A stretch of DNA of 64,000 nt. Origin: an uncultured Deferribacteraceae bacterium (GTDB lineage Bacteria > Chrysiogenota > Deferribacteres > CAMZNJ01). How positions within the stretch are numbered: position 1 is the first letter of the stretch; the number at the start of each line of letters is the position of its first letter. Of the stretch, positions 1-59,573 are shown piece by piece. The notes below the pieces were generated by a model. The model had not been told where the DNA came from and did not search any database. It was given only the letters and a program-made list of their open reading frames with translations. The stretch lies in the NCBI GenBank assembly GCA_947313825.1, contig CAMZNJ010000055.1, forward strand, positions 480 to 64,479. Direction: 5' to 3'. The position numbers and the translations under genes are program-made.

Positions 1-744
1 AAATAGTTTTGCTTGCTGAGTATGCTTGTCCTCCGCTTCGTTGTAGGATTCCTTCACAAGGTAATCGTACGATTCGTACGAATCGGTCAAATGGGCACCG
101 TCAACACTCAAGGCAGTGTTCGGTATGGCACCAAGGGTCTCAGCAAGAAACGTGCGGAACTCGCGAGGGTACGACCCCACAAGAACACCAACCGAACCCG
201 CCCCTTTAATGTGGGATGCGTGGTAGGTGTGAATATCTTCCATCGTGAGGGAACTAACACTGCTCGCTGTGCCAATGGTGGTAAGGGAGTACGGCGTACC
301 TGCATAGGTAAAAGATCGGAACAACCGACCAGCACGATACCGCGGAGAGTCCTCTGCACCCTGAATATCCAATACTGACAAGGCTTTTTCCGTTTCAAAA
401 ATATGGGGGTGGAGGGTTGGCTCAAGTAGAAACGCCTCCAAATCGATTTGGATGGCTGACAGGTGGTGGGATGGGATGGATATCCACACCGAAAGGTAAT
501 CGGCACTAACGGAAACATCTAGGGAGCCGCCACAGTGCTCAATTGTGTGCAGGAGGTTGCTACTCTTTGTCCACACCGAGGCAAACAGGGAGCCGACACC
601 GTTAATATTTTTCGATCTGCCCTGCCCGTACTCTGCCGTAAGCCCCCCAGAAAACAGAATAACTAAGCTGACTAACGAGCTATTCCCATACCCACCATCA
701 TCGCTACCGTAAGCATAAAAATTTAGCCCATTGTTTAAAATCAC
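1..744 (-). CDS. M16 (pitrilysin/insulinase) family protein, N-terminal ~245 aa only (gene runs off window start); zinc-binding HxxEH motif replaced, probably a non-catalytic M16 partner subunit
   Basis: A minus-strand frame absent from the ORF track (it has no in-window stop) is open from position 753 to the window edge. Its translation is GGSVILNNGLNFYAY...GVGSLFASVWTKSSNLLHTIEHCGGSLDVSVSADYLSVW...RYRAGRLFRSFTYAGTPY...MEDIHTYHASHIKGAGSVGVLVGSY. This fits the M16 N-domain consensus (NGL, EHxxGGxxNAxT.D.T.Y, R-Y pair, FHxxxYxPxNxxLxVVG). The position of GxAHfLEHmxFKG reads GVGSLFASVWTKS, so the ligands H,E,H are replaced by S,A,S. The probable start is GTG at 744. Confidence 0.55.
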   Translation of the reverse strand, partial: MILNNGLNFYAYGSDDGGYGNSSLVSLVILFSGGLTAEYGQGRSKNINGVGSLFASVWTKSSNLLHTIEHCGGSLDVSVSADYLSVWISIPSHHLSAIQIDLEAFLLEPTLHPHIFETEKALSVLDIQGAEDSPRYRAGRLFRSFTYAGTPYSLTTIGTASSVSSLTMEDIHTYHASHIKGAGSVGVLVGSYPREFRTFLAETLGAIPNTALSVDGAHLTDSYESYDYLVKESYNEAEDKHTQQAKLF

Positions 745-913: not shown

Positions 914-3619
914 TTAGCGTCCGGTTTCCATGAGCCTGCGAATCTCCTCACGAACAACTTTTTCTATCACAGTTTTTATGGATTCGTTAATGCCACCCTC
1001 CATGTACTGCTCCACCGCTTGCCCAACAAGGGCTTCCAACGCCTCTTGGTGCGGGGCATCTTGGTGTGAAACACCTTGGTGTGAAGCACCTTGGTGTGGG
1101 GCATCTTGGTGTGAAACACCTTGGTGTGAAGCACCTTGGTGCGGGGCATCTTGGTGTGAAACATCTTGGTGTGAAACACCTTGGTGTGAAGCACCTTGGT
1201 GTGGGGCATCTTGGTGCGGGGCATCTTGGTGCGGGGCATCTTGGTGCGGGGCATCTTGGTGTGAAGCACCTTGGTGCGGGGCACCTTGGGGAGTGCTCGG
1301 CAGTAGGTGTGCATCAAGTCCAGTTTTGGCGATGGTTCCGTCAAGGAGCTCCGTTTCGGCATCCACAGTCGCTGACCTGCTGTCTGCTTCCAACATACCC
1401 CTCAAGTTATCAATGGCGTCCATCTCTTGGGCACTGTGTGGCTCTGCATATTCGCTGATCGACTCACCAAAGACAAGGTCTTCGTCCATGCTGAGCCCAC
1501 CTCCAAGTATATCATCAGTAACATTTCCGTGCAAATCTTGTGGCATGGCGTCCACGTTGTTCATTGCGTCCACGTTGCTCATGGCGTCCACGTTGTTCAT
1601 GGCGTCCACGTTGCTCATTGCGTCCACGTTGTTCATGGCGTCCACGTTCCCCATAACTTCAGCGGGGAGGTTAGGGCTTGCAGGTGCAACACGGGGTGGT
1701 ATTTCGTTTGTAACAGCTGTGCCATCCAAGGTAAACGGTATTTCCATGAGCAATGCCTCTGCACTGAATTTTTCTTCATCCCCTTCCGTGCCAGTTTCGA
1801 GGGGGTATTTTGCGTTCTGTGCGGGTTGTTCGCCCGTCATTGCATACTCTGTGTTGTTCATATCGGCGTATCCTCCGCCAGAGTCGAGGCTTACTGTTTT
1901 CCCGCCGTCCTGCAGTAGGCTGTCGCCGAGCCCTTCCTCTAGCAGGTTGTCCACCAAGATGTCGAAATCCTTGGCGAATACTCCCGTTTGTTCCTGAGTG
2001 GTGTTTTCAAGTGGATCTTTTTCCTGCTGTGTGGTGGATGAGCCTATTAGTTGTTCAAGCTCGCGTATATCTGCATCTATGGCGTTCATGTCGGATGTAT
2101 CCACTGAGGTGTCATCTGCCTTCGTGGTTTTTTGATCATTGTTGTTGTCAACAATATCGGTTGTTAGTGCACTGTAGAACTCTTCCATATCGTCGCCCAT
2201 ATCGTCGTCCATATTGTCTATGTCGAAGTTCATGTGTGTATCATGTACGGAAGGTGTATCGTCGAGTTCGTCGCCCCCTATGGGTTCAACTCCCCCTCCC
2301 GGCGAAACCCTGTCACGTAGAAACGTCGAGTACCGATAATCTTCTTTCATGAGGTTGTCGAGTATTGATGTTTGGTTGTATTCAGGTGTTTTCAGGTCAT
2401 CGGGGTCGTTGTCGAAATCCGCAACGTCAGCGTCAGCAACGTCAGCGTCAGCAACGCCGGCATCAGCAACAAATCCAACAAAGCCAGTACCAACGCCGAA
2501 GTCAGCAGCGTCAGCATCCGCACCGAAGCCAGCAACGTCGACAACGTCGTCATCCGCACCAAGGTCAGCAACGTCAGCACCAGCACCGAAGCCAGCAACG
2601 CCAGCAACGTCGGCACCAGCAACGCCAGCAACGCCAGCAACGTCGGCATCCGCACCAGCACCAAGGTCAGCAACACCAGCGTTAACGCCAGTACCTCCCA
2701 CACTTTCCACCGGCTCGAGCTCTGCATGTTTCTTTATGTGTGCCAGCTCTTCATCGGTAAACATACCTTTGAGCATTGCGTCAAGCTGTTGCGAGTTGGT
2801 CTGCTCGGTGCCTTGGGGAGCACCACCAGCACCAGCACCAGCACCATCGGAGCCACCTACCATGCTTGACACCTCTTCCACACCGTCCGCACTTCCTAAG
2901 TTGTTACTTGCTTTTTTATTCTTTTTCCTAAACAACATACCTTGCTCCTCAGCCATCTCTTTGATATCATCGGGCATACTAGTGTTTTTATTCGATATAT
3001 CTGCACTGCCCCTGTGTTTATTGATACTGTTTTCGTTACGATTATTCGTGGTGTTATGATTATTCGTGGTGTTATGATTATTCGTGGTGTTATGATTATT
3101 CGTGGTGTTATGATTATTCGTGCCATACTCCATTGCAAACACGTCGGGCAGTCCGTCCAAGCCTTCGTACCCTTCCACAACGTCCAGTCTTTCGTCTGTT
3201 TTTGTATTAGCGTCAGTGTTGTGGTTTATCATCACAGAGGCATGATAGTTTATTTCGTCCTCGAGTTGTTTTTCGGTAAGTGGTTTTGCTAAAATACGGT
3301 ATCTGTGTGCAGGGATGTTGTGTTGTTTGAGGTGTTTTTTGATGTGTTCGTCGTCTCCAAAAAGCACAACACTTGTTTGTTTTGGAACAATGTGTTCTAG
3401 TTGGTGCAATGCTTGACTGAGTACAACACCTTCAATATTGGCATCCAGTATGATAATATTGGGCTCAGAGTTCTTTAATGCAACGGTTAAGTCCTCTATG
3501 GCGAAAAATTTCTTCAACGCAACAGACGCCATCCCATCGCAAATACTTGCAATGCTTTTGTGTACTGCCAAGCTATCATCAACAAGAAAAATTCGCGTAA
3601 CGTCTACTGCTGTGTTCAT
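914..3619 (-). CDS. CheY-like receiver (REC) domain protein with a ~700-aa acidic, multi-array tandem-repeat low-complexity region and a short conserved C-terminal helix
   Basis: The ORF is 901 aa. The N-terminal 125 aa carry REC hallmarks: LVDDS acidic pair, IIILDAN phospho-acceptor Asp, TSVVLFG, ILAKP Lys. In-frame repeat arrays follow: NNHNTT x6, GAGAGAGG, VAGVAG/ADVAD, NVDAM[NS] x6, and the pentapeptide HQ[DG][AV][PS] about 17 times. The C-terminus is LEALVGQAVEQYMEGGINESIKTVIEKVVREEIRRLMETGR. The many plus-strand ORFs inside this gene (930..1997, 1066..1458, 2349..3059 and others) are repeat artefacts. Confidence 0.75.
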   Translation of the reverse strand: MNTAVDVTRIFLVDDSLAVHKSIASICDGMASVALKKFFAIEDLTVALKNSEPNIIILDANIEGVVLSQALHQLEHIVPKQTSVVLFGDDEHIKKHLKQHNIPAHRYRILAKPLTEKQLEDEINYHASVMINHNTDANTKTDERLDVVEGYEGLDGLPDVFAMEYGTNNHNTTNNHNTTNNHNTTNNHNTTNNRNENSINKHRGSADISNKNTSMPDDIKEMAEEQGMLFRKKNKKASNNLGSADGVEEVSSMVGGSDGAGAGAGGAPQGTEQTNSQQLDAMLKGMFTDEELAHIKKHAELEPVESVGGTGVNAGVADLGAGADADVAGVAGVAGADVAGVAGFGAGADVADLGADDDVVDVAGFGADADAADFGVGTGFVGFVADAGVADADVADADVADFDNDPDDLKTPEYNQTSILDNLMKEDYRYSTFLRDRVSPGGGVEPIGGDELDDTPSVHDTHMNFDIDNMDDDMGDDMEEFYSALTTDIVDNNNDQKTTKADDTSVDTSDMNAIDADIRELEQLIGSSTTQQEKDPLENTTQEQTGVFAKDFDILVDNLLEEGLGDSLLQDGGKTVSLDSGGGYADMNNTEYAMTGEQPAQNAKYPLETGTEGDEEKFSAEALLMEIPFTLDGTAVTNEIPPRVAPASPNLPAEVMGNVDAMNNVDAMSNVDAMNNVDAMSNVDAMNNVDAMPQDLHGNVTDDILGGGLSMDEDLVFGESISEYAEPHSAQEMDAIDNLRGMLEADSRSATVDAETELLDGTIAKTGLDAHLLPSTPQGAPHQGASHQDAPHQDAPHQDAPHQDAPHQGASHQGVSHQDVSHQDAPHQGASHQGVSHQDAPHQGASHQGVSHQDAPHQEALEALVGQAVEQYMEGGINESIKTVIEKVVREEIRRLMETGR

Positions 3620-3717
3620 ACTTTAAACTTCCCTTGTAAAATAATGACCTCGTAAACACACATTATCAATACAGATTATTGCAAAAAAAAACAAATATTG
3701 CAAACAATTAACAAATT

Positions 3718-10139: not shown

Positions 10140-11171
10140 TCAATACGTCAGCAGGAACGAACCGTAAGAGATACCACCACCAAGGGTCGCACCAACAACA
10201 TTGTCGCCACGCTTAATCTTACCAGAACGAATACCCTCATCCAAAACCGTTACAATACTAGCAGCGATAACGTTACCACGGCGATCAAGGTTGATGATAG
10301 CATTATCCATGTCAAGGTTTATCGCCTTGGCAGCAGCGGAAATAATGCGTATATTCGCCTGATGGGGAACAAACCAGTCCACATCCTCCAAACGCAACCC
10401 AGCACCGTGAATCGCCTCCTCAGTGATAGAAGCAAACTTACGCACAGCAAGCTTGTACATCGCCTGACCATCCATACCCAAGGGTGCATGGGTACAGCTA
10501 TCATCACCGTCGGCACAGCTGTTGCTCGCCTCGGGGGCGTTGGGAGCAAGAGCGTGTGTGGTTACGGGGGAGTTCGACTTCACGCCAACACCAAGGGTAA
10601 GCATGGACGCGTGGTACGGATCAGCACCAATGGACGAGTATCGCACACCGGGGGAGTTATCAGCGGAAAGAACAACAGCACCGGCACCGTCCCCGAATAG
10701 CACAACTGTACTACGATCTGTCCAGTCAAGTATGGAGGACGATTTATCCGCAGCGATTAGGAGAAGGTTTTTCGCCGAGCCCCCTTCAATCATCATCTTC
10801 CCCATGTGTAGGGCGTAGCTGAAGCCGGAGCAGGCGGCGGAAAGATCGTAGCCGAAGCAGCCGTTTTTGATACCGAGGCGACCGATGAGTGCACAGGCAT
10901 TGCTGGGCATCATGGTGTCGGGGGTGATGGTCGCATAAATCACACCGTCAATACTCTCCAAACTAATACCCGAAGCCTTCACAGCCTTTTTCGCGGCATT
11001 CACAGCCATGTCAAGATTGGTTTCGTCCACAGCAATATGACGCGATAGGATACCTGTACGAGTGCGTATCCACTCGTCATTCGTTTCTAGGAATGAGCTA
11101 AACTCGTCGTTTCGCATAACTCGAGGTGGAAAGTAAGACCCTGTGCCTGTAATTCTAGCATATTTTTTCAT
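10140..11171 (-). CDS. fabH: 3-oxoacyl-ACP synthase III
   Basis: KAS III fold with the ACSGF Cys motif and C-terminal GATLGGGISYGSFLLTY. Confidence 0.85.
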   Translation of the reverse strand: MKKYARITGTGSYFPPRVMRNDEFSSFLETNDEWIRTRTGILSRHIAVDETNLDMAVNAAKKAVKASGISLESIDGVIYATITPDTMMPSNACALIGRLGIKNGCFGYDLSAACSGFSYALHMGKMMIEGGSAKNLLLIAADKSSSILDWTDRSTVVLFGDGAGAVVLSADNSPGVRYSSIGADPYHASMLTLGVGVKSNSPVTTHALAPNAPEASNSCADGDDSCTHAPLGMDGQAMYKLAVRKFASITEEAIHGAGLRLEDVDWFVPHQANIRIISAAAKAINLDMDNAIINLDRRGNVIAASIVTVLDEGIRSGKIKRGDNVVGATLGGGISYGSFLLTY

Positions 11172-11187
11172 TATAATTGCACCTAGC

Positions 11188-12240
11188 TTAAATTGAGGGT
11201 GCAGTATCCATGGTATTTAGGTCGTTCAGATAGTCAACGGATTCGGATACCTCAGCATTAAGCTTCCCAATAATATCTTTTTTCGACAGGTGTTCGCACA
11301 TCTTGATACCGTTGGCAATGGCGAAAGCGTTGGCTGAGCCGTGCCCGATGATACTGATGCCATTGACCCCAAGAAACGGAGCACCGCCATAGCTATGGTA
11401 GTCTGCTTTTTTGGAGAATGCACGCAACGCACGAAACATGAATAACGCCCCTATCCATGCAAGGGGATCGTATTTTATCTGCCCTTTGATGGACGACATT
11501 GCCATCTTGCCAACAGATTCGGTTATTTTGAGGGTAATATTGCCAGTGAAACCGTCGCAAACAACAACGTCTGCACCGTCGAGGTAGAACTGTTTCGCCT
11601 CAACATTGCCAACGAAATTAATAGCACCCTCTTTGCCCAATTCGCTGAGCATAATGTGGGAGCGTTTGGTAAGATCGTTACCTTTAACAGCCTCTTCCCC
11701 AATATTGAGGAGTCCGACGGTGGGTTTCTCCACACCTTTGAGAAGGCTGAAATAAACAGAGCCCATTACGCCGAACTGAAGAAGGTTCAGGGGTTTGCAG
11801 TCAACGTTGGCACCAAGATCGAGGATGAGGGATTCACCTTGCATGGTCGGCAGCATGGTCGCAATGGCTGGACGGTCGATACCGTTGATGCGTCGAAGAA
11901 TCATCAGTGAGCAAGCCATGACCGCACCAGTATTGCCGGCACTGTAAAAACCGCTCGCAAGCCCCTCTTTCACGAGCCCAAGACCGACGTGCACAGATGA
12001 CTGACGTTTCCCACGCAAAACTTTGGCGGGCTGATCATCCATGGTAATTACTTCGTCGGCGTGATAGATTTCGAATGTGCCTGAGGGGAGTTTCGGATAT
12101 TTACGCAGTTCAATCTCGATAACTTCAGTATCGCCAACAAGGATAGATCGTACCTTATATTTTTTGGCAGCTAAAACAGCTCCCTTGATAACAACAGAGG
12201 GACCACCATCGCCACCCATAACATCTACTGCTACTCGCAT
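11188..12240 (-). CDS. plsX: Phosphate acyltransferase PlsX
   Basis: MRVAVDVMGGDGGP... is typical PlsX. Its position between rpmF and fabH matches the conserved order. Confidence 0.9.
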   Translation of the reverse strand: MRVAVDVMGGDGGPSVVIKGAVLAAKKYKVRSILVGDTEVIEIELRKYPKLPSGTFEIYHADEVITMDDQPAKVLRGKRQSSVHVGLGLVKEGLASGFYSAGNTGAVMACSLMILRRINGIDRPAIATMLPTMQGESLILDLGANVDCKPLNLLQFGVMGSVYFSLLKGVEKPTVGLLNIGEEAVKGNDLTKRSHIMLSELGKEGAINFVGNVEAKQFYLDGADVVVCDGFTGNITLKITESVGKMAMSSIKGQIKYDPLAWIGALFMFRALRAFSKKADYHSYGGAPFLGVNGISIIGHGSANAFAIANGIKMCEHLSKKDIIGKLNAEVSESVDYLNDLNTMDTAPSI

Positions 12241-12262
12241 ATTAATAGTTGAGGTGAATAGC

Positions 12263-20612: not shown

Positions 20613-21590
20613 ATGAACAACACTGTAGGCGAAAACAAAGGAGCAACCATCAACGTGGCACTAGTCGGGGCAACAGGTCGAATGGGACGAGAAATCGCAC
20701 AACTCGCAACTAGTATGCCGAATATTCGCATCGTCGAGGCGTTCGACAAACACACCTCTAAACACCTCGGAACACCACTGCAAGAACTACTCCCAAACAC
20801 ACACGAAAACCATGACAACATACCACCCACCGTTATCGTATCCTCCCTGCCAACACCCGAAACCGCTAACACATACCTGCAATCAGTGCAACCAAACAGC
20901 ATGCCCCACGTACTCGTGGACTTCACCTCACCCGAAGGCACAATGGCAAACATCAACACCTACCACGCACTAAGAATACCCGTTGTCATCGGATCCACAG
21001 GCACAAGCCAGCAACTCCATGACAAAATCGCTGAACTCAGCACCAAAATACCCGTGTTCTACTCAGCAAACATGAGCATGGGGGTGCACATCATGAAACA
21101 ACTCACAATACACCTAGCACAACTCGCAACCCTAATGCAAAATACGGGCACACACACAACTCAAAATGGGAACAATCATGACGAAAACGTAAACCCAACC
21201 TACGACTTTGAAGTGATAGAAGCACACCACAACCGAAAACAAGACGCACCCAGCGGAACAGCAGTAATGTTGGCACAAAATATTGTCGATAACTTTGGCA
21301 ACAGCAGACAGCTGTCGGATCGTGCAAAATACTCCCGCCACGGCGACAATACCAAACGCACACCTTACGAAGTTGGCGTACAATCTATTCGCGGGGGCTC
21401 AATTGTTGGCGAACACACAGTAATGTGCATCGGGAGCAACGACCGCATCGAAATTACACACCGAGCGTCGTCGCGACGTATATTTGCTGAAGGGGCACTG
21501 CAGGCGGCGGCATGGTTGGCGTTGCAACACAGAAACAACTGTCCGAACTCACTCTACACCATGGACGACCTACTCCCTGCACAGCAGTAG
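20613..21590 (+). CDS. dapB: 4-hydroxy-tetrahydrodipicolinate reductase (unusually long, 325 aa, with N/T/H-rich inserts)
   Basis: NVALVGATGRMGREI is the NAD(P) motif, and EAHHNRKQDAPSGTA is the DapB signature. Confidence 0.8.
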   Translation: MNNTVGENKGATINVALVGATGRMGREIAQLATSMPNIRIVEAFDKHTSKHLGTPLQELLPNTHENHDNIPPTVIVSSLPTPETANTYLQSVQPNSMPHVLVDFTSPEGTMANINTYHALRIPVVIGSTGTSQQLHDKIAELSTKIPVFYSANMSMGVHIMKQLTIHLAQLATLMQNTGTHTTQNGNNHDENVNPTYDFEVIEAHHNRKQDAPSGTAVMLAQNIVDNFGNSRQLSDRAKYSRHGDNTKRTPYEVGVQSIRGGSIVGEHTVMCIGSNDRIEITHRASSRRIFAEGALQAAAWLALQHRNNCPNSLYTMDDLLPAQQ

Positions 21591-21877
21591 CACGCACACG
21601 CCACACGCCTGCACGGCAGTAGCACACACGCACACGCCACACGCCACACGCACACGCCTACACGCCACACGCCACACGCCACACGCCACACGCCTGCACG
21701 GCACACGCCTGCACGGCAGTAGCACGCACGCACACGCCACACGGCACACGCACACGCCTGCACGGCAGTAGCACACACGCACACGCCACACGCCACACGC
21801 CACACGCCACACGCCACACGCCACACGCCTGCACGGCAGTAGCACGCACACACACGCCACACGGCACACGCACACGC
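21591..21877. repeat. Tandem-repeat array (CACGCCA heptamer runs interleaved with 4 extra copies of CCTGCACGGCAGTAGCAC, a near-copy of the dapB 3' end) filling the dapB/kef convergent junction
   Basis: Read directly: copies at 21608, 21708, 21757 and 21838, plus the original at 21576. Minus-strand ORFs 21554..21915 within it are taken as artefacts. Confidence 0.85.
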
Positions 21878-23875
21878 CTACACGGCGAATGTTCGTGCGT
21901 AAATGCCCAGCACACGCTCAGTGGGGAGGGACGTTCCCATTACGATCCTGTCAGCCTCTTCCACAACGTTGTCGTGCTTAGGCATGGGTATGAGACTGTT
22001 CCCTCGAATGATGGCAACAATATGCACCGTTACCGCTGGTCGTTCCTCCAACAGCATCTCCCGCAAGGTTTTCCCCACTAGCATCCCGTAATGTTCTGTG
22101 TGCACGATTGCAAAGTATGAGTTGGGGAGTTCCACTTCGTACCGCTCTAGTAGGTTATCGATACTGAGCTCTAGCGTATTGTTGACGGCTTCTTTGGAGA
22201 TATGCTTATCCAGCACCCTTTTGCTAATCCTAGCTTTCGACTTTTCCGCAATCCCCTTGACGCTAAACATGTGGTAGATCATATCGTACCCCACAAGGTC
22301 GTCGGAAACAATAACATGGCTTGCCCCAACATCCAGCATCCCCTCGGCAACCCCTTTGCTTGTGGACTTTGTGATGACGTAAATATCTTCGTTCATGCTT
22401 TTCGCCGCCAAAATAATATCTTTGGTGATACCCGCATCGGGCACTGAAATACTTATTCCTAGGGCATCACATGCTCGTAAGTGTTTCAGTACCCCCTTTT
22501 TCCTTGCGTCGCCGTAGATAATCGGCTCAGTGGATCGATACCTTTTGACCGTCTCAGGGTTGGTTTCCGTGATAACATAGGTCATGCCAAACCCCTTAGC
22601 GGCACGGGCAAGCATCTGCCCCGTTGGTCCGTACCCTACGATAATAATGTGGTCGTGGAGGTGTTCGTAATCGGGGTTGTCAATGCTTTTGGCGTAAAGA
22701 CCGTGTGCCCAGATACCCTTGAGGTCGGAAAGCTCCATACGCTCCTCTATTTTTGCCGCCAACGACGCTATGAACGGTGTAACGAAAAAACCGGACAGTG
22801 CCAAAGTTACGAGGAAGCTGTGTATTGCGGGGTTTATCGGATGGTAGACGTTGGTCAAGGTCAGAATCACGAGGAAAAACTCCGACAACTGACCCATAAG
22901 CAACCCCACACGCAACGACGACGCCAACGGCAAACCTATCAAAAACGCAACAACCGCAATCACCACAAACTTCAAAAAATAAACAATGGGGAGACTAATC
23001 AACACTATGCCCACGTTGTCCACAATGAAATTAATGTCCAAAGATAAGCCGATAAATATGAAGAAAAACGCAATCATCAAATCCTTAATGGCTAGAATGT
23101 CCGCACCAGCCTCATGGGCAAAATCGGTGTCAGCCAAAACCATGCCAGCTATAAACGCACCAAAAGTGTTGGGGAGCTCCAAAGCCAACGACGCCACAAC
23201 TATCACAGCACACAACCCCAATATGGACATGATGAACATCTCAGGATCACGCTTCTTCGCAACAGTCAAAAGCAGGAACGGTATCACATACCGACCCATG
23301 AAATACACCACTACAACAAGAATAATCGCCTTCAACAAGACAAAACCCATGCCGAGCAAACCATCAGACTCGAAATAAATAGGGATGAACGACAACAAAA
23401 ATACGCTGGCAACATCCTGCATAATCAAAATACCGATGGTAGTGCGACCGAATGGCGTATGTTGCTGTTTGCTCTGCGAAATAATCTTAAACAGCATCGC
23501 CGACGAACTCAAAGCTATCCCAACGCTGATTATCCCCGCAACAACACCCGACAAACCGAAAAGCATGGTCAAAGGTAGAAATACCACCGCCGTAACAAAA
23601 ATCTGAAGCGTGCCCGCAACAAGAACCTCACGCTTTAACTTCGCAATCTCCCTGAACGAAAACTCCATGCCGATACTGAACAACAGCAGGATTATCCCTA
23701 TCTCACCCATAATCTCAATAACATGGGAATAATCCGAACCCTGACCAAGAACAAGACCAGCAATAATGCCTGTCGTAAGGTACGCCAACACTGTGGACAG
23801 ATTGAGAACCTTAAAAATAAAAACTAAAAGACCAGTCAACGCCATCAATAACGCAATATTATAAATTGTATCCAT
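21878..23875 (-). CDS. Monovalent cation:proton antiporter (CPA2/Kef-type) with C-terminal TrkA-N/TrkA-C (RCK) domains
   Basis: A multi-TM N-terminal half is followed by the IIIVGYGPTGQMLARAAK Rossmann motif. Confidence 0.8.
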   Translation of the reverse strand: MDTIYNIALLMALTGLLVFIFKVLNLSTVLAYLTTGIIAGLVLGQGSDYSHVIEIMGEIGIILLLFSIGMEFSFREIAKLKREVLVAGTLQIFVTAVVFLPLTMLFGLSGVVAGIISVGIALSSSAMLFKIISQSKQQHTPFGRTTIGILIMQDVASVFLLSFIPIYFESDGLLGMGFVLLKAIILVVVVYFMGRYVIPFLLLTVAKKRDPEMFIMSILGLCAVIVVASLALELPNTFGAFIAGMVLADTDFAHEAGADILAIKDLMIAFFFIFIGLSLDINFIVDNVGIVLISLPIVYFLKFVVIAVVAFLIGLPLASSLRVGLLMGQLSEFFLVILTLTNVYHPINPAIHSFLVTLALSGFFVTPFIASLAAKIEERMELSDLKGIWAHGLYAKSIDNPDYEHLHDHIIIVGYGPTGQMLARAAKGFGMTYVITETNPETVKRYRSTEPIIYGDARKKGVLKHLRACDALGISISVPDAGITKDIILAAKSMNEDIYVITKSTSKGVAEGMLDVGASHVIVSDDLVGYDMIYHMFSVKGIAEKSKARISKRVLDKHISKEAVNNTLELSIDNLLERYEVELPNSYFAIVHTEHYGMLVGKTLREMLLEERPAVTVHIVAIIRGNSLIPMPKHDNVVEEADRIVMGTSLPTERVLGIYARTFAV

Positions 23876-24141: not shown

Positions 24142-24840
24142 ATGTCATCAAGAACATCCAGAGCCGTAAAACGCCACAACAGTGCCAAAAACAAACAGCA
24201 CAACGAACACATCCCAACACCAAACACCATGGCAACTGAAGGCGAAATCATCCAAACACCAAGCAAACTCGCAACAATGGCAACAAAATACAAACTGCAA
24301 CTCATGATCGTAGCACCAATACTACTCGTGCTCATCGTACTCGCAACAACAACATACCTCAACACAAGCAACAAAAACTCAACACCTGTGGCGTACGGAC
24401 AATTCTTTGCCGCACTCGACAACTACAACCCAAATACCGGCAACTTTACTCTCAATAAAGCGTACGAAAATGCCAAAAACTCGGTGGACACGAAAACAGG
24501 CGACTACCTCACATACATCGTCGGAGTAGTCAAGTACGAAAACGCAAACTCCACACAGGAAGGGTTACAACTACTGCAAACCATCGTAACCGAACCATAC
24601 AAATCCGCAGCACAAGGGTATATTGCTGACGCAACAGGAAGCCTCGACGACGGCTACAATGGCGACTCAGCCGACAAAAACTCCCTCGAAACACTCATCC
24701 CGTCCCTATGGGATTACCGACTAATCGTAAGCAACATCACTAACATCGACCCCAAAGAGCAGATGGAATTTGTGGGCGAACACCCCGAATCAAACTTGGC
24801 TGCACTGCTCAACGTTATTGCAGCAGGGGAGATGGAGTAG
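24142..24840 (+). CDS. Hypothetical membrane-anchored protein (single N-terminal TM helix, ~170-aa extracytoplasmic domain)
   Basis: A GGAGGA ribosome-binding site precedes the ATG at 24142. The TM segment is LQLMIVAPILLVLIVLATTTYL. No recognisable catalytic motif was found. Confidence 0.5.
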   Translation: MSSRTSRAVKRHNSAKNKQHNEHIPTPNTMATEGEIIQTPSKLATMATKYKLQLMIVAPILLVLIVLATTTYLNTSNKNSTPVAYGQFFAALDNYNPNTGNFTLNKAYENAKNSVDTKTGDYLTYIVGVVKYENANSTQEGLQLLQTIVTEPYKSAAQGYIADATGSLDDGYNGDSADKNSLETLIPSLWDYRLIVSNITNIDPKEQMEFVGEHPESNLAALLNVIAAGEME

Positions 24841-24847
24841 CCGACAG

Positions 24848-25265
24848 TGGCTGACGTGGTGGCGTGGCTGGCGTGGTGGCGTGGCTGGCGTGGTGGCGTG
24901 GCTGACGTGGTGGCGTGGCTGACGCGGTGGCGTGGCTGGCGTGATGGCGTGGCTGACGTGGTGGCGTGGCTGACGTGATGGCGTGGCTGACGTGGTGGCG
25001 TGGCTGACGTGGTGGCGTGGCTGACGTGGTGGCGTGGCTGACGCGGTGGCGTGGCTGGCGTGGTGGCGTGGCTGACGTGGTGGCGTGGCTGACGTGGTGG
25101 CGTGGTGGCGTGGCTGACGTGGTGGCGTGGCTGGCGTGGTGGCGTAGCTGACGTGATGGCGTAGCTGACGCGGTGGCGTGGCTGGCGTGGTGGCGTAGCT
25201 GACGTGATGGCGTGGCTGGCGTGGCTGACGTGGTGGCGTGGCTGGCGTGGTGGCGTGGCTGACGC
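24848..25265. repeat. 17-nt tandem repeat (GGCGTGGCTGACGTGGT and variants, ~24 copies)
   Basis: Read directly. Minus-strand ORFs 24714..25325 and 24815..25552 give 17-aa-periodic products and are judged artefacts. Confidence 0.85.
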
Positions 25266-25290
25266 ATCGGGAATAAGAATACGAACATAC

Positions 25291-25338
25291 AAATAGGGGG
25301 GGGTATCAACAAACGTGTTGTCCATACCCCCCCTATTT
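25291..25338. terminator. Bidirectional intrinsic terminator hairpin (G8/C7 stem, 17-nt loop, T-runs on both sides) between convergent genes
   Basis: Read directly: aaataggggggggtat-caacaaacgtgttgtcc-ataccccccctatttta. Confidence 0.7.
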
Positions 25339-25548
25339 TACATTTACAACACGGCAACACCTGTGCAACACGGCAACACCTGTGCCACACGGCAACACAT
25401 GTCCCACGCTCTCTGCATCTTACAACACGGCGACACCTGTGCAACACGGCAACACCTGTGCCACACGGGAACACATGTCCCACACGGCAACACATGTTCC
25501 ACGCTCTCTGCATCTTACAACACGGCAACACCTGTGCCACACAAGCGT
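25339..25548. repeat. 19-nt tandem repeat (ACACGGCAACACCTGTGCC and variants), organised as a ~96-nt higher-order unit x2.3, ending 7 nt from the ackA stop
   Basis: Read directly from the sequence. Confidence 0.85.
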
Positions 25549-25554
25549 GCACGC

Positions 25555-31680: not shown

Positions 31681-31832
31681 GGTCGGCGGTCGGCGGTCGT
31701 GGTCGGCAGTCGTGGTCGGCGGTCGTGGTCGGCGGTCGTGGTTGGCGGTCGGCGGTCGTGGTCGGCGGTCGTGGTCGGCGGTCGTGGTCGGCGGTCGTGG
31801 TCGGCAGTCGGCGGTCGTGGTCGGCGGTCGGC
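31681..31832. repeat. 13-nt tandem repeat (GGTCGGCGGTCGT/GGTCGGCAGTCGT, ~12 copies) in the rpe/gmhB convergent junction
   Basis: Read directly. ORFs 31531..31948 and others inside it are taken as artefacts. Confidence 0.85.
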
Positions 31833-47760: not shown

Positions 47761-49260
47761 ATGGACATGGACATAGACATGGACAACAACCCAAACCGCA
47801 ACAAACAACAAAACAGCATGGAACAAAACCTCATCATCATGGTGTACTCTGTGTACTACCTTTCACGAAAAGTATTCCGATCACACCGCAAAGAACGACA
47901 CATATCCGAATACATCTGCGTTGCCCTGAAAAAGAAATACAACTCCATACCAAACAAAGACGACTTCATCATCGACCTCGTCAACAACATACAATCCCAA
48001 GGGATGACCGAAAAAGAACTACTCTCCAAACTACTCGAACTCACATTCGAAATGGGGGAACCACAACGCGAAAAAATACTCAGTATCGCCGAAAACCTCG
48101 TAACCTTTGCACACGGACAAGAACTCAACCGCATTCACGACGCCTTCAACATCGAACGAAAAATCTCATACCAAATAAAATCCTCAGTAATGAGTGGCAT
48201 CACTGAAAACGCCGGTATCCGTGGCATCATCATGGCAGCACTAACCGTAACTTTCACACTAATCGCCATCACCATGCCCGTTGTAGGGATACTACTCGAC
48301 GACGACGAGGCTATCCCAGCAGTAAGCCTCGTCCACGCCACAGGGAACACCACGGCGAACACCACAGACGAACAGGCACGCAACGCCATATACCCAGTGT
48401 TACAGCGTATCGAGTTCGATAAGTTCATCATCAACGGCGTTCTGTCCCAAGACAATATTGCCTCAGCAACAACCAACAGCTCTGTTTACAATATTCAAGG
48501 CTATGCGGACATATCCATCGACCTGCACGAGTTTAGCTACCTCAACTCAGTCGTATCCCACAAATCAGACCTCAACCTAGTCCCATTTCGCATCAAAGTT
48601 ACCATCGATAACACAACCCTTACCAGAGTGGGTTTCGCCCAAAGCTACATCGAGCCCAATACGGGGAAAACAGTAAGCTCCCTGCCCCTGCAAACCTTTA
48701 GCACACCCGATGGTTGGCTTCGGCTACAACCCAAAAGGTTGCGTACACAGACCACAGAAGAGACGCAAAACAGTACCGCTGACACACCCGACACACCCGA
48801 CACACCCGACACACCCGACACCAAAAACATTAGCAATATACAGTACACCTCTACTAGCTCCTTGTTCTATCAGATTAGCGACCATTCAAAAATTATTCAC
48901 TACCTCGCACCAGTACCAAACACAGCCAACACAGCCAACACAGCCAACACAGCCACGAACACCACTGCAAACGTAAACACATCCAACACTACCGAACAAA
49001 GCACCATCCTTGCCACCCCCTCTACCTCTGCCATAAACTACCTTGTCGTTAATACAGTTTTGTCGTCCGATACAGTTGCCGCATCCGAGTACGGTGCAAG
49101 CCTCGCAATCGACGTCAACAGGCTCAACGAACAGATAGCCATTAGCCTACTGTCGGACAAGCAGATTTACAGCACCATGGTTGATACTTTAAGGGTATTT
49201 TTGTACACTGAGTATGCTCGCAACGGGCTCTATGTCGGAACCATAAGCCTAAACCCTTAA
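47761..49260 (+). CDS. Hypothetical bitopic membrane protein (~150-aa cytoplasmic N-domain, one TM, ~330-aa extracytoplasmic domain with TPDT and NTA repeats)
   Basis: An AAGGAG ribosome-binding site lies 11 nt before the ATG at 47761. The N-terminus is MDMDIDMD. The TM segment is GIIMAALTVTFTLIAITMPVVGILL. No recognisable domain was found. Confidence 0.6.
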   Translation: MDMDIDMDNNPNRNKQQNSMEQNLIIMVYSVYYLSRKVFRSHRKERHISEYICVALKKKYNSIPNKDDFIIDLVNNIQSQGMTEKELLSKLLELTFEMGEPQREKILSIAENLVTFAHGQELNRIHDAFNIERKISYQIKSSVMSGITENAGIRGIIMAALTVTFTLIAITMPVVGILLDDDEAIPAVSLVHATGNTTANTTDEQARNAIYPVLQRIEFDKFIINGVLSQDNIASATTNSSVYNIQGYADISIDLHEFSYLNSVVSHKSDLNLVPFRIKVTIDNTTLTRVGFAQSYIEPNTGKTVSSLPLQTFSTPDGWLRLQPKRLRTQTTEETQNSTADTPDTPDTPDTPDTKNISNIQYTSTSSLFYQISDHSKIIHYLAPVPNTANTANTANTATNTTANVNTSNTTEQSTILATPSTSAINYLVVNTVLSSDTVAASEYGASLAIDVNRLNEQIAISLLSDKQIYSTMVDTLRVFLYTEYARNGLYVGTISLNP

Positions 49261-49289: not shown

Positions 49290-50873
49290 ATGACGCAACT
49301 AATCTTACGAAAACTATCCTCACCAGTGCTACTTATTTCAGCGTTTGCACTCATGGTTGCCCTATCCTTGCCCCTACAGCAACGTTTGCGTAGTATTCCG
49401 TCCATGTCCCCCATCAATGGCAGTATTCAAAACATGTACAATCAATCTGAGCTCACCCTCGCCCTTACCCAAGTTGATCTGTACCTCGACATCCCCCGCG
49501 TATCACGCATCACACCCTACCTCGTTACCGCCAAAATCGCCACCAAAGGCATTAGCACTCACTACATCACAAATAAAACCGATTCTGAAGCCCCCAAAGA
49601 GCTCGTCATGGTAATACCGCCACCCATCATCAGCGTACTCCCCACCGATAATAGCAATGCCTTCACCATCCGCGAAAGCAACGCCAGTGTTGCCTACCGC
49701 AAAGGGTTATCCGACTTCGGACTCATCTATGCAAAACGCAAAGCCTTGCAAGAAGGGTTACTGGAGCAAGCAAACAGCTACTTGCAAAAACTTGCCACTG
49801 AATCAGAAAAATACAGCAACACCGTAATCCACATCGACACAGACTCATGGGAGACACCCCTGCCTCCTGCAATAAATATCACGGGAACACGCTTCAGCCT
49901 CTACCCCGATCGCAACAGCAACCTCTCCTACAACACCAACTACACCTCCGACAAACTCTCATACTACTTTGCAAATATCACAGACAACACCACCAGCTCC
50001 ACCCTCACCATGTCCCTCTACGACATAGACATAGACATAGACATGGACATGGACACGGACATAGACAAGGCGAACACAGAAACAAACAACACCCCATGGA
50101 CACACAATACTCTACGCACATACGACGGCAAAAACATGATAAGCATATCCTTTACCCCCACAGGGTTTAACGCAATGATAAAGGACGATACCAGAACATA
50201 CCTCCTTGCCGCACAATCCCCCTCCCCCAGCGATTTTTCCAGCTTCCTACCCGTCGCCCTCAACACCATATCTTCTTTGCGAATTAACACCAACCAAACC
50301 AATATCCAAGAAAGTTGTACAGATATTTTTCAAAATAATATTGACGCGTGGTTGAACTCAGACGCGATAAGCATTAACGATTACGTCAAAGGGCTGTTGC
50401 TTTCCAAGTACTTTAATCCCGATAAAATATTTCAAACCGTTGACATTCAGAACACAACAGTGCTATATGATAGTAAAACCTTGGACGAATACCAAGGGAA
50501 CATACGACAACTCACCATACGATTACAAAATATCGGTCAATCCAACGCCCTAACACAGCAGACAGCAAATTTTGCACTTTACAGCAAGAATGCCTTGGCA
50601 AACAACGAAGATATCTATATACTGTTTTTAAAAACAAGGGCTTACGTTTACGTTTACGACAACTCTGGTAATAATATTCTAAATAAAACTATGAACTTTT
50701 ACCAGCTCCCGAACAACTATAAGGTAGTTATTGATAACCAGTCCTCGTGTTCTAGCGGTCGACTCTACAAACACGAAGACGACATGTTCTGCTTTAGCAA
50801 AACATATGTGGCAGACTTTATCGACAAGCTCATCAATGACTCCTTTGTTGCTCTATTTAAATGTGGGTTATAA
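49290..50873 (+). CDS. Hypothetical secreted/envelope protein (signal peptide or TM anchor, 527 aa, internal DIDIDIDMDMDTDID repeat)
   Basis: A GGAGA ribosome-binding site is present. The N-terminal hydrophobic segment is VLLISAFALMVALSLP. The gene lies 38 nt upstream of the ECF sigma gene on the same strand. Confidence 0.6.
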   Translation: MTQLILRKLSSPVLLISAFALMVALSLPLQQRLRSIPSMSPINGSIQNMYNQSELTLALTQVDLYLDIPRVSRITPYLVTAKIATKGISTHYITNKTDSEAPKELVMVIPPPIISVLPTDNSNAFTIRESNASVAYRKGLSDFGLIYAKRKALQEGLLEQANSYLQKLATESEKYSNTVIHIDTDSWETPLPPAINITGTRFSLYPDRNSNLSYNTNYTSDKLSYYFANITDNTTSSTLTMSLYDIDIDIDMDMDTDIDKANTETNNTPWTHNTLRTYDGKNMISISFTPTGFNAMIKDDTRTYLLAAQSPSPSDFSSFLPVALNTISSLRINTNQTNIQESCTDIFQNNIDAWLNSDAISINDYVKGLLLSKYFNPDKIFQTVDIQNTTVLYDSKTLDEYQGNIRQLTIRLQNIGQSNALTQQTANFALYSKNALANNEDIYILFLKTRAYVYVYDNSGNNILNKTMNFYQLPNNYKVVIDNQSSCSSGRLYKHEDDMFCFSKTYVADFIDKLINDSFVALFKCGL

Positions 50874-57563: not shown

Positions 57564-59275
57564 CCCAAAAACCGAAACAATCAAAACAACCACTGCTTAC
57601 CCTACAAAACCTCAACACAACCCTCTACGCAAACAACTCAACAACAAAACTACTCCAAAACGTTGACCTACAACTCAACGAAAACGAAATAATGGCCCTC
57701 GTCGGACTCTCGGGAAGCGGAAAAACAATGCTGTGGAAATCCATGGTCGGTGTACTGCAACACAAAACAACAAAACAACCAAACAACAGCTTCATCACCG
57801 AAGCAACAATGGACGGCTCCATCACAAACAACACTCAAACACAATCACTAAACAAACTACTCGGACAAAAAAACGGCATCGGTATCATATTCCAAGAACC
57901 ACACGCATCACTCGACCCACTCATGACAATAGGGGAACAAATAAGCGAAGTCCTCAAGCTACACAGTAGCGAGCCACACAGTAGCAAGCCACACAGTAGC
58001 AAGCCACACCGTCGAAAAAAATTGACCAAACAGGAGCTAACAAACAAAGTACACGACGCCCTAACACAAGTCGAACTCAACCCAAACTACAACAACCGAT
58101 ACCCACACCAACTCTCTGGCGGTGAAGCACAACGCGTCGCAATCGCACTGGCAATCGCAAACAAACCCAAACTCATCATCGCTGACGAACCAACTTCAAA
58201 CCTAGACGAAACAAACCAAACACTCATCATCAACATGCTACAAAAACTCTGCCAACAAAATAGCACATCCCTGATTCTCATTACCCACAACATCGCCATG
58301 GCAGCATCTGTTGCACAAAAAATCGCCATTCTACAAAATGGCACCATCATCGAAACAATAAACAACATACCAAACAACAACATGGACAAACTCATCGCCA
58401 ATGCCAAACAAAAACACACCAAAAACCTACTCATCGCAAACCAATTTCAACCAAAACACAAAACAACCCACAACGCTGACAACAAAAAAGCACGATTCTT
58501 CACCGTGCTCGAAAACAATACCCAAACAAATACAAACAATCCACTAACGCCAAAAGGGGAAAATATTACGCAAACAATGTGGGTCAAAGGTGCCACAAAT
58601 CAACAAATTAACCTCAACAAATGCACCAACGCCATCGAAATCAAAAACCTTACCAAAATATACAACAACCGTAAAGGGAACGCCACAGCACTGAAAAACA
58701 TCAACCTAAACATACCCGCAGGAAAAATCACAACACTAGTCGGACAATCAGGGAGAGGCAAATCAACCCTCGCAAACATACTCGCAGGGCTGGAAACACC
58801 CTCTGAAGGAACAATCACCGTATGGGGAGAAAAAACAAACCCAACACAACGCTACAAACATATCAGAATCGTAACACAATACCCAAACACAATGCTCAAC
58901 CCAAAAATGACCATCAAAAATATACTGCGTAACAGTGCCACAAACAACTACAACCCCGCAATACACCCATACCACGTGAAATACCTGATGAACGAATTCA
59001 TACTGCCAACAAACACACTCAACAAATACCCACACCAACTCTCTGGCGGACAAAAACAACGTATCGCAATAATGACAGCACTCATGGGGGGAGCAACAAT
59101 CCTCATCGCAGACGAAATCACTTCCGCCCTCGACGCCAACGCAGCCGCAACAATACTAAATATGCTACTGGACATCAACGAACGAATGGGCACAACAATA
59201 CTGCTCACAACACACAACACAGCAATAATTAAAGGGTTTGCAGACCATACCGCAACGCTGGATAGCCACGGCTAA
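57560..59275 (+). CDS. ABC transporter ATP-binding protein, fused double ATPase (DppD-DppF-like) with low-complexity inserts
   Basis: Two Walker A motifs (GLSGSGKT, GQSGRGKST) and two signature motifs (LSGGEAQR, LSGGQKQR). An in-frame HSSEPHSSKPHSSKPH repeat is present. Confidence 0.85.
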   Translation: MTQKPKQSKQPLLTLQNLNTTLYANNSTTKLLQNVDLQLNENEIMALVGLSGSGKTMLWKSMVGVLQHKTTKQPNNSFITEATMDGSITNNTQTQSLNKLLGQKNGIGIIFQEPHASLDPLMTIGEQISEVLKLHSSEPHSSKPHSSKPHRRKKLTKQELTNKVHDALTQVELNPNYNNRYPHQLSGGEAQRVAIALAIANKPKLIIADEPTSNLDETNQTLIINMLQKLCQQNSTSLILITHNIAMAASVAQKIAILQNGTIIETINNIPNNNMDKLIANAKQKHTKNLLIANQFQPKHKTTHNADNKKARFFTVLENNTQTNTNNPLTPKGENITQTMWVKGATNQQINLNKCTNAIEIKNLTKIYNNRKGNATALKNINLNIPAGKITTLVGQSGRGKSTLANILAGLETPSEGTITVWGEKTNPTQRYKHIRIVTQYPNTMLNPKMTIKNILRNSATNNYNPAIHPYHVKYLMNEFILPTNTLNKYPHQLSGGQKQRIAIMTALMGGATILIADEITSALDANAAATILNMLLDINERMGTTILLTTHNTAIIKGFADHTATLDSHG

Positions 59276-59297: not shown

Positions 59298-59573
59298 ACG
59301 TGCGTGTGTGTGCTGACGCTGGACGTGTGCGTTGCTGACGCTGGACGTGTGCGTTGCTGACGCTGGATGCGTGTGCGTTGCTGACGCTGGACGTGTGTGT
59401 GTTGCTGACGCTGGATGCGTGTGCGTGCTAACGCTGGATGCGTGTGCGTGCTGACGCTGGACGTGTGTGCGTGCTGACGCTGGACGTGTGTGCGTGCTGA
59501 CGCTGGACGCGTGTGTGTTGCTGACGGACGGCACCGCGGACGGCAACCACGGACGGCACCGCGGACGGCACCA
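59298..59573. repeat. 22-nt tandem repeat (TGCTGACGCTGGACGTGTGCGT variants, ~10 copies) followed by GACGGCACCGCG x4, filling the ABC-ATPase/dnaB convergent junction
   Basis: Read directly. ORF 59229..59594 within it is taken as an artefact. Confidence 0.85.

Follow-up and report, generated by a model that had tools for sequence, protein, structure and literature searches.

What protein joins a CheY-like receiver to hundreds of residues of acidic tandem repeats and a Glu-rich terminal helix? The question is raised by a gene near one end of a 64,000-nucleotide stretch of contig CAMZNJ010000055.1 from an uncultured Deferribacteraceae bacterium. The whole stretch is called the window, and positions refer to it unless another assembly is named. 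The open reading frame (ORF) lies at 914..3619 on the minus strand and encodes 901 amino acids (aa) from an ATG start to a stop codon at 914-916. The initial annotation, written from the sequence alone, saw a receiver, acidic disordered repeats, and a C-terminal helix. This three-part anatomy is correct. It also did not recognize the architecture as a described one, and this part does not stand. The architecture is that of RomR, and the protein is a divergent relative with a repeat-swollen linker. The gene is probably the Candidatus (Ca.) Rimicarispirillum ortholog of the RomR cell-polarity response regulators, and its product would be a cytoplasmic scaffold in three parts. The ORF and its parts are listed below; selection was measured as the ratio of nonsynonymous to synonymous substitution rates (dN/dS), and L001, L004, and L005 are three further assemblies that carry the gene.

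914..3619, minus strand: whole ORF, RomR-like response regulator (ORF list; intact orthologs in L001, L004, and L005; overall dN/dS 0.20-0.26 against L004/L005).
3230..3619, minus strand: receiver domain (REC), aa 1-130 (Response_reg 29.4 bits; family profile; AlphaFold2 fold; invariant columns).
1049..3229, minus strand: linker, aa 131-857, about 727 aa (composition rich in Asp, Ala, Gly, Asn, and Val; pLDDT mostly <50).
923..1054, minus strand: RomR-C-like helix, aa 856-899 (AlphaFold2 helix, pLDDT 78-88; RomR-C model; dN/dS 0.08-0.16).

Keilberg et al. (2012) defined RomR by three parts: a REC domain, an unstructured linker that differs in length and composition from lineage to lineage, and a conserved alpha-helical Glu-rich region, RomR-C, with an invariant Trp and Pro (PMC3441718). 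The linker and RomR-C both target RomR to the poles, and the hosts are Myxococcales, Geobacter/Pelobacter, Acidobacteria, Deferribacterales, and Aquificales (PMC3441718). The Deferribacteres entries are Calni_0658, DEFDS_0166, Flexsi_0107, and Dacet_3018 (PMC3441718), and we infer that the Deferribacterales homologs found here are the proteins behind these Table S3 locus tags. RomR, the polarity response regulator of Myxococcus and Bdellovibrio, serves the MglA/MglB polarity module as its polar scaffold. In Myxococcus its REC docks RomX. The helix formed by RomR residues 371-420 is a homotrimer and binds the MglC dimer, for which it requires W394; E390, K391, and E402 are conserved residues (Kodesia et al. 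2025, PMC12719032). RomR also formed phase-separated droplets in crystallization drops. The protein from the window has the REC, an unstructured and non-conserved linker, a Glu-rich C-terminal helix, and synteny with clear RomR-type genes of other Deferribacterales. The initial guess of a phosphorylation-linked scaffold agrees with the known function of the RomR family.

Nine of the 44 residues of the C-terminal helix are Glu. A hidden Markov model (HMM) was built from 19 RomR-C-type C termini with the target lineage excluded, and it scores the last 60 residues of the target at 23.3 bits (E 2.6e-9 for one sequence). None of 2000 shuffled sequences reaches this score, the best being 11.0. The target retains E874 and E886, which correspond to Myxococcus E390 and E402, and G875, N878, and K882 stand where Myxococcus has K391, W394, and P398. 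The spacing of Myxococcus E390, K391, W394, and E402 fits the motif of the relatives, E-K-x-x-W-E-V-V-P-x-x-x-E. The primer-derived Myxococcus segment K-A-S-R-E-V-I-E-K-I-A-[W]-E-V-V places E, K, x, x, W, and E at +8, the spacing found in LEKAVWEIVPELAEK of the Deferribacterales relatives. Myxococcus RomR-C spacing also matches SREVIEKVVWEVVPDLAE among the C-terminal profile matches from 5.8 billion proteins, and the profile matches P0016, P0018, and P0022 likewise fit the RomR-C motif. About half of the 19 sequences have the Trp, which is missing from Geovibrio, L008, L009, P0005, and P0007. Hydrophobic residues recur every 4 residues along the target helix (x-Phi-Phi-x), no single heptad register fits, and the 100-degree hydrophobic moment is not above shuffles; for these reasons no coiled-coil claim is made. 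The C-terminal profile gave only chance matches against the PDB, for example, myosin light chain at E 0.08.

Many uncharacterized proteins of 40-123 aa (P0023, P0028, P0032, P0036, P0047, P0033) end in '(I/V)P(D/E)(I/V)AER(V)IREEIE(R/K)LKK' and have no REC. Some of them share an N-terminal '...IYDL(V/I)D(V/I)VE...' motif, and P0033 carries the module twice in tandem. The occurrence of the module in these small proteins makes the RomR-C helix look like a portable module of several protein families.

The relatives and their gene order place the target among the Deferribacterales homologs. A HMMER search with aa 1-135 against 1.84 billion representatives returned six matches at 23-32% identity. 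Five of the six combine a REC (Response_reg 42-59 bits, above the cut-off) with an acidic low-complexity linker and a C-terminal '...WEIVPELAEKLILEEIERIKKG' helix, and the C-terminal pattern of the relatives is '...(W)E(I/V)VP(E/D)(L/I)AEKLI.EEIE.(I/L)KKG'. One relative is from Geovibrio thiophilus (WP_128465201.1, P0010) and another is from a Deferribacterota metagenome-assembled genome (MAG). A genome scan with an alignment of REC and C terminus found four loci, the L005 contig and three Deferribacterales MAGs. The target has no match in NCBIfam, a collection without a RomR model, and there the relatives match nothing but unrelated regulators, in the REC parts of these and at scores far under the cut-offs. 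The gene order at L009 is fabF-rnc-radical SAM-rsmD-coaD-[636-aa homolog]-purM-purN-M16 peptidase. L011 has plsX...fabF-rnc-radical SAM-rsmD-coaD-HD-[P0005]-purM-purN, with one HD-domain gene inserted. The window, L001, L004, and L005 share the order ...fabF-rnc-radical SAM-rsmD-coaD-[target]-M16. The conserved fabF-rnc-radical SAM-rsmD-coaD neighborhood makes the target the positional ortholog of the Deferribacterales homologs. In all Rimicarispirillum assemblies purM and purN are absent between the target and the M16 gene (L001 11254-11382, compared with L009 7905-9548).

The source of the window is a Deferribacteraceae gut symbiont of Rimicaris, Ca. Rimicarispirillum. The L005 contig, CAMZNS010000038.1, belongs to the uncultured Deferribacteraceae bacterium isolate M_Rainbow_MAG_00001. 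This MAG, named Ca. Rimicarispirillum atlantis, represents a symbiont that lives in the midgut of the vent shrimp Rimicaris exoculata (PMC9636832). The symbiont cells form long, polyploid filaments that do not divide and are wedged among the microvilli of the host, and flagellar and chemotaxis genes are kept (PMC9636832). Each Rimicarispirillum MAG holds one cheA, two cheW, one cheY, and two mcp genes.

The ORF is a genuine gene. No called gene is recorded for the target protein, and the protein collection that was searched lacks the L001 ortholog. Orthologs in L001, L004, and L005 were reached through the product of the neighboring coaD gene, and with the window they make four assemblies from two Rimicarispirillum species. 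The L001 ortholog comes from the same species as the window; it has 810 aa and is 98% identical. The orthologs in the sister species have 924 aa (L004) and 900 aa (L005). The four are colinear, with unique segments in identical order and frame. Their length differences all fall within repeat arrays or low-complexity stretches and comprise dozens of indels, every one in-frame. The expectation of a length-variable locus is supported by the three other assemblies, in which array copy numbers differ. Selection was estimated by the Nei-Gojobori method for the window against L004/L005. Outside the arrays, dN/dS is 0.08-0.35, which is purifying selection. The values are 0.17-0.22 for REC, 0.08-0.09 for the segment aa 268-313, 0.11-0.15 for the unique acidic stretch aa 404-657, and 0.08-0.16 for the C-terminal 44 residues. 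The last 37 residues are almost invariant between the two species. The VAG/ADVAD/GFGA region (aa 314-403) is the most divergent between species, with dN/dS of 0.31-0.48 and many indels. Constraint on the "disordered" part is thus as strong as that on the folded domain.

The REC domain is divergent. Response_reg aligns to the isolated N terminus over profile positions 1-110 of 111 at 29.4 bits (E 9.6e-7), which is 0.8 bits under the gathering cut-off of 30.2 bits. The Pfam check proposed for the receiver thus recovers nearly the full profile just below the cut-off. A Pfam scan of the full protein gave no Response_reg match, and its sole report was a weak DUF2497 match. Against solved REC domains the family profile reaches E 3e-12; the target REC sequence alone gives a best E of only ~0.5 against the PDB. 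The AlphaFold2 model, run on an alignment that includes distant homologs, has the (beta-alpha)5 fold with pLDDT ~80 and places beta1 at 9-14, beta3 at 55-59, beta4 at 81-88, and beta5 at 107-112. D14, D15, D59, K112, and P113 are invariant across the family, and the codon for the acceptor D59 is at 3443-3445. The hallmark Thr/Ser of a REC domain stands at the end of beta4. The protein had been credited with every CheY hallmark; the acidic pair D14/D15, the acceptor D59, and K112-P113 are in place, but the Thr cited is T82 at the start of beta4, and the hallmark position is F87-G88. G88 is invariant in the family, and a Leu precedes it in the relatives. The aromatic switch position (K-3) is I109. 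The target therefore lacks two elements of the canonical CheY-type switch (DD, D, T/S, K, aromatic), the T/S and the aromatic residue. From these residues, phosphorylation of D59 is plausible, and canonical Thr/Tyr coupling is not.

The acidic linker accounts for most of the protein. The whole protein has 166 Asp and Glu residues, 51 Lys and Arg residues, and a pI of 4.25; the linker alone (aa 131-857) has a net charge of -108 and a pI of 4.06, in agreement with the acidity noted at first. AlphaFold2 gives pLDDT <50 for 647 residues, which cover most of aa 136-856. Five in-frame tandem-repeat arrays were identified by Tandem Repeats Finder (TRF), with scores far above the threshold, and by regular expressions on the protein. 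Arrays and helical islands are listed in order from the N terminus.

3029..3122, minus strand: NNHNTT array, 18-nt period (TRF 4.9 copies, 98% matches; 4 perfect copies and 1 degenerate copy).
2918..2971, minus strand: helical island aa 217-234, DDIKEMAEEQGMLFRKKN (ortholog conservation and AlphaFold2).
2819..2845, minus strand: GAGAGAGGA run (TRF and regular expressions).
2723..2797, minus strand: helical island aa 275-299, NSQQLDAMLKGMFTDEELAHIKKHAE (helices 275-286 and 289-299, pLDDT 62-84).
2411..2680, minus strand: degenerate VAG/ADVAD/GFGA region, aa 314-403 (TRF and regular expressions).
1934..2095, minus strand: helical islands aa 509-526, SDMNAIDADIRELEQLIG, and aa 546-562, GVFAKDFDILVDNLLEE (conservation; pLDDT up to 74).
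1541..1648, minus strand: NVDAM[NS] array, 6 copies, 18-nt period (TRF 5.8 copies, 90% matches).
1373..1432, minus strand: helical island aa 730-749, AQEMDAIDNLRGMLEADSRS (conservation; pLDDT ~79).
1044..1289, minus strand: HQ[DG][AV][PS] array, 15.5-16 units, 15-nt period with a 45-nt higher-order unit.

The arrays reported at the outset, NVDAM[NS] x6, the HQ units, the GAGAGAGGA run, and VAG/ADVAD, were all recovered by TRF and regular expressions, with 15.5-16 HQ units in place of about 17. The NNHNTT array is present, not in the six copies claimed but in four perfect copies and one degenerate copy. Copy numbers differ between assemblies, and the exact values are unreliable because short-read assemblies break or may collapse at repeats. 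NNHNTT has two copies in L001, L004, and L005. NVDAM[NS] has nine copies in L001, and L004/L005 carry a related [ND]GMDAM array of another length. The HQ units number 2 in L001, ~19 in L004 (HQDTS/YQDTP), and ~7 in L005. The sister species has extra DGAP[LH] and TENxS arrays where the window protein has none (L004 ~10593-10760 and L005 ~12060-12260; alignment columns 560-605). Arrays at these other sites indicate that new linker arrays arise de novo.

AlphaFold2 predicts short linker helices at 217-234, 275-299, 416-435, 476-494, 509-526, 546-562, and 730-749, and these coincide with segments that do not differ between the two Rimicarispirillum species. The island at aa 275-299 is the best-conserved linker segment and is nearly invariant in the four orthologs. 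The arrays fall between the conserved islands, so the linker tolerates slippage. When compared with the linkers of eight Deferribacterales homologs, neither the linker nor its islands showed significant similarity, which fits the published lineage-specificity of RomR linkers.

Several points weigh against the RomR assignment. The Pro that is invariant in all 19 of the other RomR-C-type sequences is K882 in the target, and the MglC-binding Trp is N878, so the invariant Trp and Pro of the family definition are both missing. The REC is unusually divergent, with 28-32% identity to its nearest relatives and a score under the Pfam gathering cut-off; an insertion of 4 residues precedes beta5, and neither the Thr/Ser nor the aromatic switch residue is present. 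No MglA-, MglB-, or RomX-like gene lies within the 64-kb window. Polar localization and helix oligomerization are known only for the Myxococcus and Bdellovibrio proteins. The link to Myxococcus RomR is drawn from descriptions in the literature, four residue numbers given there, and 12 residues translated from primers (REVIEKIA[W]EVV), not from the full sequence.

Other explanations of the locus were weighed against RomR orthology. That the long ORF is an assembly artefact of collapsed or chimeric repeats is hardly credible. Two short-read contigs do stop at or just before the NNHNTT array (L002 inside it, and L003), and copy numbers are far apart in assemblies of the same species (HQ units ~16 compared with 2). 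Four independent assemblies are nevertheless colinear, with unique segments in the same order and frame, the selection pattern is that of coding sequence, and the uncertainty is limited to copy numbers and does not reach the existence of the ORF. A real gene could still be in decay. The protein would then be a functionally relaxed RomR remnant in a host-restricted symbiont, its linker gathering slippage products after the polarity function had gone. The REC score under the Pfam cut-off and the missing switch residues are what such a remnant might display, as are the lost RomR-C Trp and Pro, the many tandem repeats of the genome, the long non-dividing filaments between the microvilli, and the disappearance of purM and purN from the locus. 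Against this, the 2.7-kb frame is intact in four assemblies of two species despite dozens of in-frame indels, dN/dS is 0.08-0.22 in REC, the unique linker, and the helix, and the C-terminal 37 residues are almost invariant between species. We regard decay as improbable. Two further candidates were rejected: a secreted acidic repeat adhesin, the N terminus being a cytoplasmic REC and not a signal peptide, and a phage or mobile-element gene, the neighborhood being conserved chromosomal housekeeping.

A different proposal starts from the PopZ-like C terminus of the initial annotation and makes the protein a pole-organizing hub of the PopZ type. Its C-terminal helix would be a true homolog of the PopZ oligomerization helix, and it would build a matrix or condensate tuned by REC phosphorylation and linker length, independent of MglA/MglB. 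Part of the PopZ observation is reproducible. The helix is predicted at 856-899, and DUF2497, the Pfam model of the PopZ C terminus, matches the isolated C terminus at 17.6 bits (E 0.0055) and the full protein at 12.8 bits. DUF2497 is the top Pfam family for seven of the eight C termini of the target family (best E 0.0045) and for 7 of the 19 other RomR-C-type C termini (best E 3.8e-4), and the alignments always cover the last ~45 profile positions at the extreme C terminus. Small proteins named PopZ by JGI were also among the matches of the family profile (P0014 and P0015; E ~1e-5 in 5.8 billion sequences). An hhalign comparison of the family profile with the Caulobacter PopZ C terminus gave 92% probability over 41 ungapped columns, which is a lead and not a test. 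The layouts run parallel, each with a client-binding module at the N terminus, then an acidic disordered region, and an oligomerizing helix at the C terminus, and the MglC-binding Trp is absent from the target. The scores point the other way. Every match is under the curated cut-offs of 27 bits for DUF2497 and 125 for NCBIfam PopZ_fam, including that of P0015 (DUF2497 E 5.9e-4; PopZ_fam E 3.9e-4). With reversed sequences, DUF2497 matched none of the 19, yet the unrelated DUF3819 collected 4 of the 19 at E 9e-4; sub-threshold matches of this size thus arise by chance with related Glu-rich helices. The N terminus is a 130-residue REC and has no PopZ-like helix, the lineage is not alphaproteobacterial, and the relationship to RomR-C is closer and statistically solid. 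The target is not a member of the PopZ family, and a PopZ-type hub is unlikely. The RomR-C/PopZ resemblance is real as a pattern, and homology is possible but unproven from these comparisons. Among the papers searched, those that mention DUF2497 and a RomR study with PopZ as a tool make no connection between RomR-C and the PopZ C terminus. A wider proposal would make RomR-C and the PopZ C terminus one ancient, reused pole-clustering helix module that also ends 40-120-aa proteins (P0023, P0028, P0032, and P0036). RomR types would then be PopZ-like hubs with a phospho-receiver, and the target a phosphorylation-gated condensate scaffold tuned by repeat number. We consider this doubtful, if conceivable.

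RomR orthology remains the preferred reading, and gene adjacency in the relatives bears on its input. In one Deferribacterales branch, a CheA-REC hybrid kinase gene and a CheW-like gene immediately precede the homolog (L010 and L015), and the homolog and the CheW-like gene overlap in L014-L016. The hybrid kinase has 794-795 aa and a FrzE-like architecture (L010 3272-7428; L015 2163-6031; also L014 and L016). The kinase gene of L015 follows a gene of 718 aa. This arrangement suggests that, outside the Myxococcales, RomR has a dedicated chemosensory input, and the adjacency in L010 and L015 is the best available clue to a possible phosphodonor. The 64-kb window itself contains no chemotaxis genes, and the neighbors of the target are housekeeping genes.

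The preferred reading leads to the following model. Phosphorylation of the REC on D59 is probably still possible, with a CheA-type kinase as the most likely donor. From gene adjacency in the relatives and Myxococcus biochemistry, the domain would accept a phosphoryl group, dock a RomX-like adaptor, or do both. The linker would act as a spacer and as a pole-targeting or multivalent-interaction region that contributes to clustering, as its conservation and the pole targeting by the Myxococcus linker suggest. Its short conserved amphipathic helices probably bind clients. The C-terminal helix probably self-associates and may nucleate polar clusters, in analogy with the Myxococcus trimer. Absence of the MglC-binding Trp means that the partners at this helix must differ from those in Myxococcus. 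A helix that has lost Trp and Pro and remains under purifying selection argues for a conserved role beyond MglC binding, probably self-association. In this lineage, short DNA repeats have slipped in-frame and swollen the linker to ~727 aa, a process seen genome-wide.

Regions around the gene were also characterized. The 98-nt upstream intergenic region has a ribosome-binding-like site and promoter-like hexamers; a promoter consensus scan of the upstream region found five sites, which is not above shuffles (mean 4.5). Rfam and tRNA scans of the window found no RNA genes.

3620..3717, minus strand: 98-nt upstream intergenic region, AAGGGA ribosome-binding-like site, promoter-like hexamers TTGCAA-17-AATAAT at 3703-3675.

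An (AACGC)n microsatellite of ~24 copies lies at 791-908, between the stop codon of the target and the M16 peptidase gene (744..1, minus strand). The intergenic distance is 169 nt in the window, 127 in L001, 195 in L004, and 200 in L005. The tract could modulate expression of the M16 peptidase gene or could be plain slippage. The window is unusually rich in tandem repeats and holds long GC-rich intergenic arrays: (CACGCCA)n with ~41 copies, a 17-nt unit x25.6, a 19-nt unit x10, a 13-nt unit x10, and a 23-nt unit x9.7. Tandem-repeat sites are 21591-21884, 24847-25264, 25349-25542, 31681-31830, and 59302-59526, and also 48781-48955, 50022-50067, and 57955-58009. Other ORFs of the window carry short in-frame repeats with periods of 6, 9, 12, and 15, and some apparent ORFs, for example, 21554-21862 and 24815-25552, are mere translations of arrays. 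With tandem repeats throughout the window, repeat expansion looks like a property of the genome that is tolerated where the protein is disordered.

The main value of these results is classification: an apparent "CheY-disordered-PopZ" protein belongs to the RomR polarity scaffolds. It is an unusual member, with the RomR-C Trp and Pro and the REC switch residues lost under continued purifying selection and a ~727-aa Asp-rich, array-laden linker. The disordered region of RomR can reach this length by slippage while helical islands persist, and the assemblies offer a natural linker-length series for polar clustering. If the condensate-scaffold reading were true, variation in repeat number would tune material properties in giant, polyploid, non-dividing symbiont cells. 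A real RomR-C/PopZ similarity would link two textbook bacterial polarity systems. Only this relationship could matter more broadly; the findings themselves open no long-standing question.

Comparison with known systems sets the protein apart from PopZ and close to RomR. It shares with Caulobacter crescentus PopZ (Q9A8N4) an analogous layout and a weak, repeated similarity in the last ~45 residues. It differs in its N terminus, which is a REC and not the H1 helix, and in its phylum, and the similarity is not statistically secure. With RomR it shares the N-terminal REC with acidic pair, acceptor Asp, and Lys, the lineage-specific unstructured linker, and an extreme C-terminal Glu-rich helix with an E...E core and an '(A/I)E(K/R)(L/V)(I/V)REEI(E/R)RL' tail. 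In contrast to RomR, the target lacks equivalents of the RomR-C Trp, Pro, and K391 (N878, K882, and G875), and its REC has the 4-residue insertion and no Thr/Ser or aromatic switch residue. Its linker has ~727 aa compared to ~190-250 in Myxococcus, and it is Asp/Ala/Gly/Asn-rich with five arrays, not Pro-rich or Glu-rich. The Deferribacterales homologs (P0010, L008, L009, L010, and P0005-P0008) differ from the target in that their REC domains score above the Pfam cut-off, at 42-59 bits, they all retain the RomR-C Pro, and their linkers of 125-480 aa are Glu-rich (Asp plus Glu 25-40%) and not built from arrays; REC identity to the target is just 28-32%. They share with it the three-part layout with an acidic linker, the REC signature DDS..(I)H, F..ED, LD...EG, Gly 88, and KP, and the position after coaD and before purM-purN/M16.

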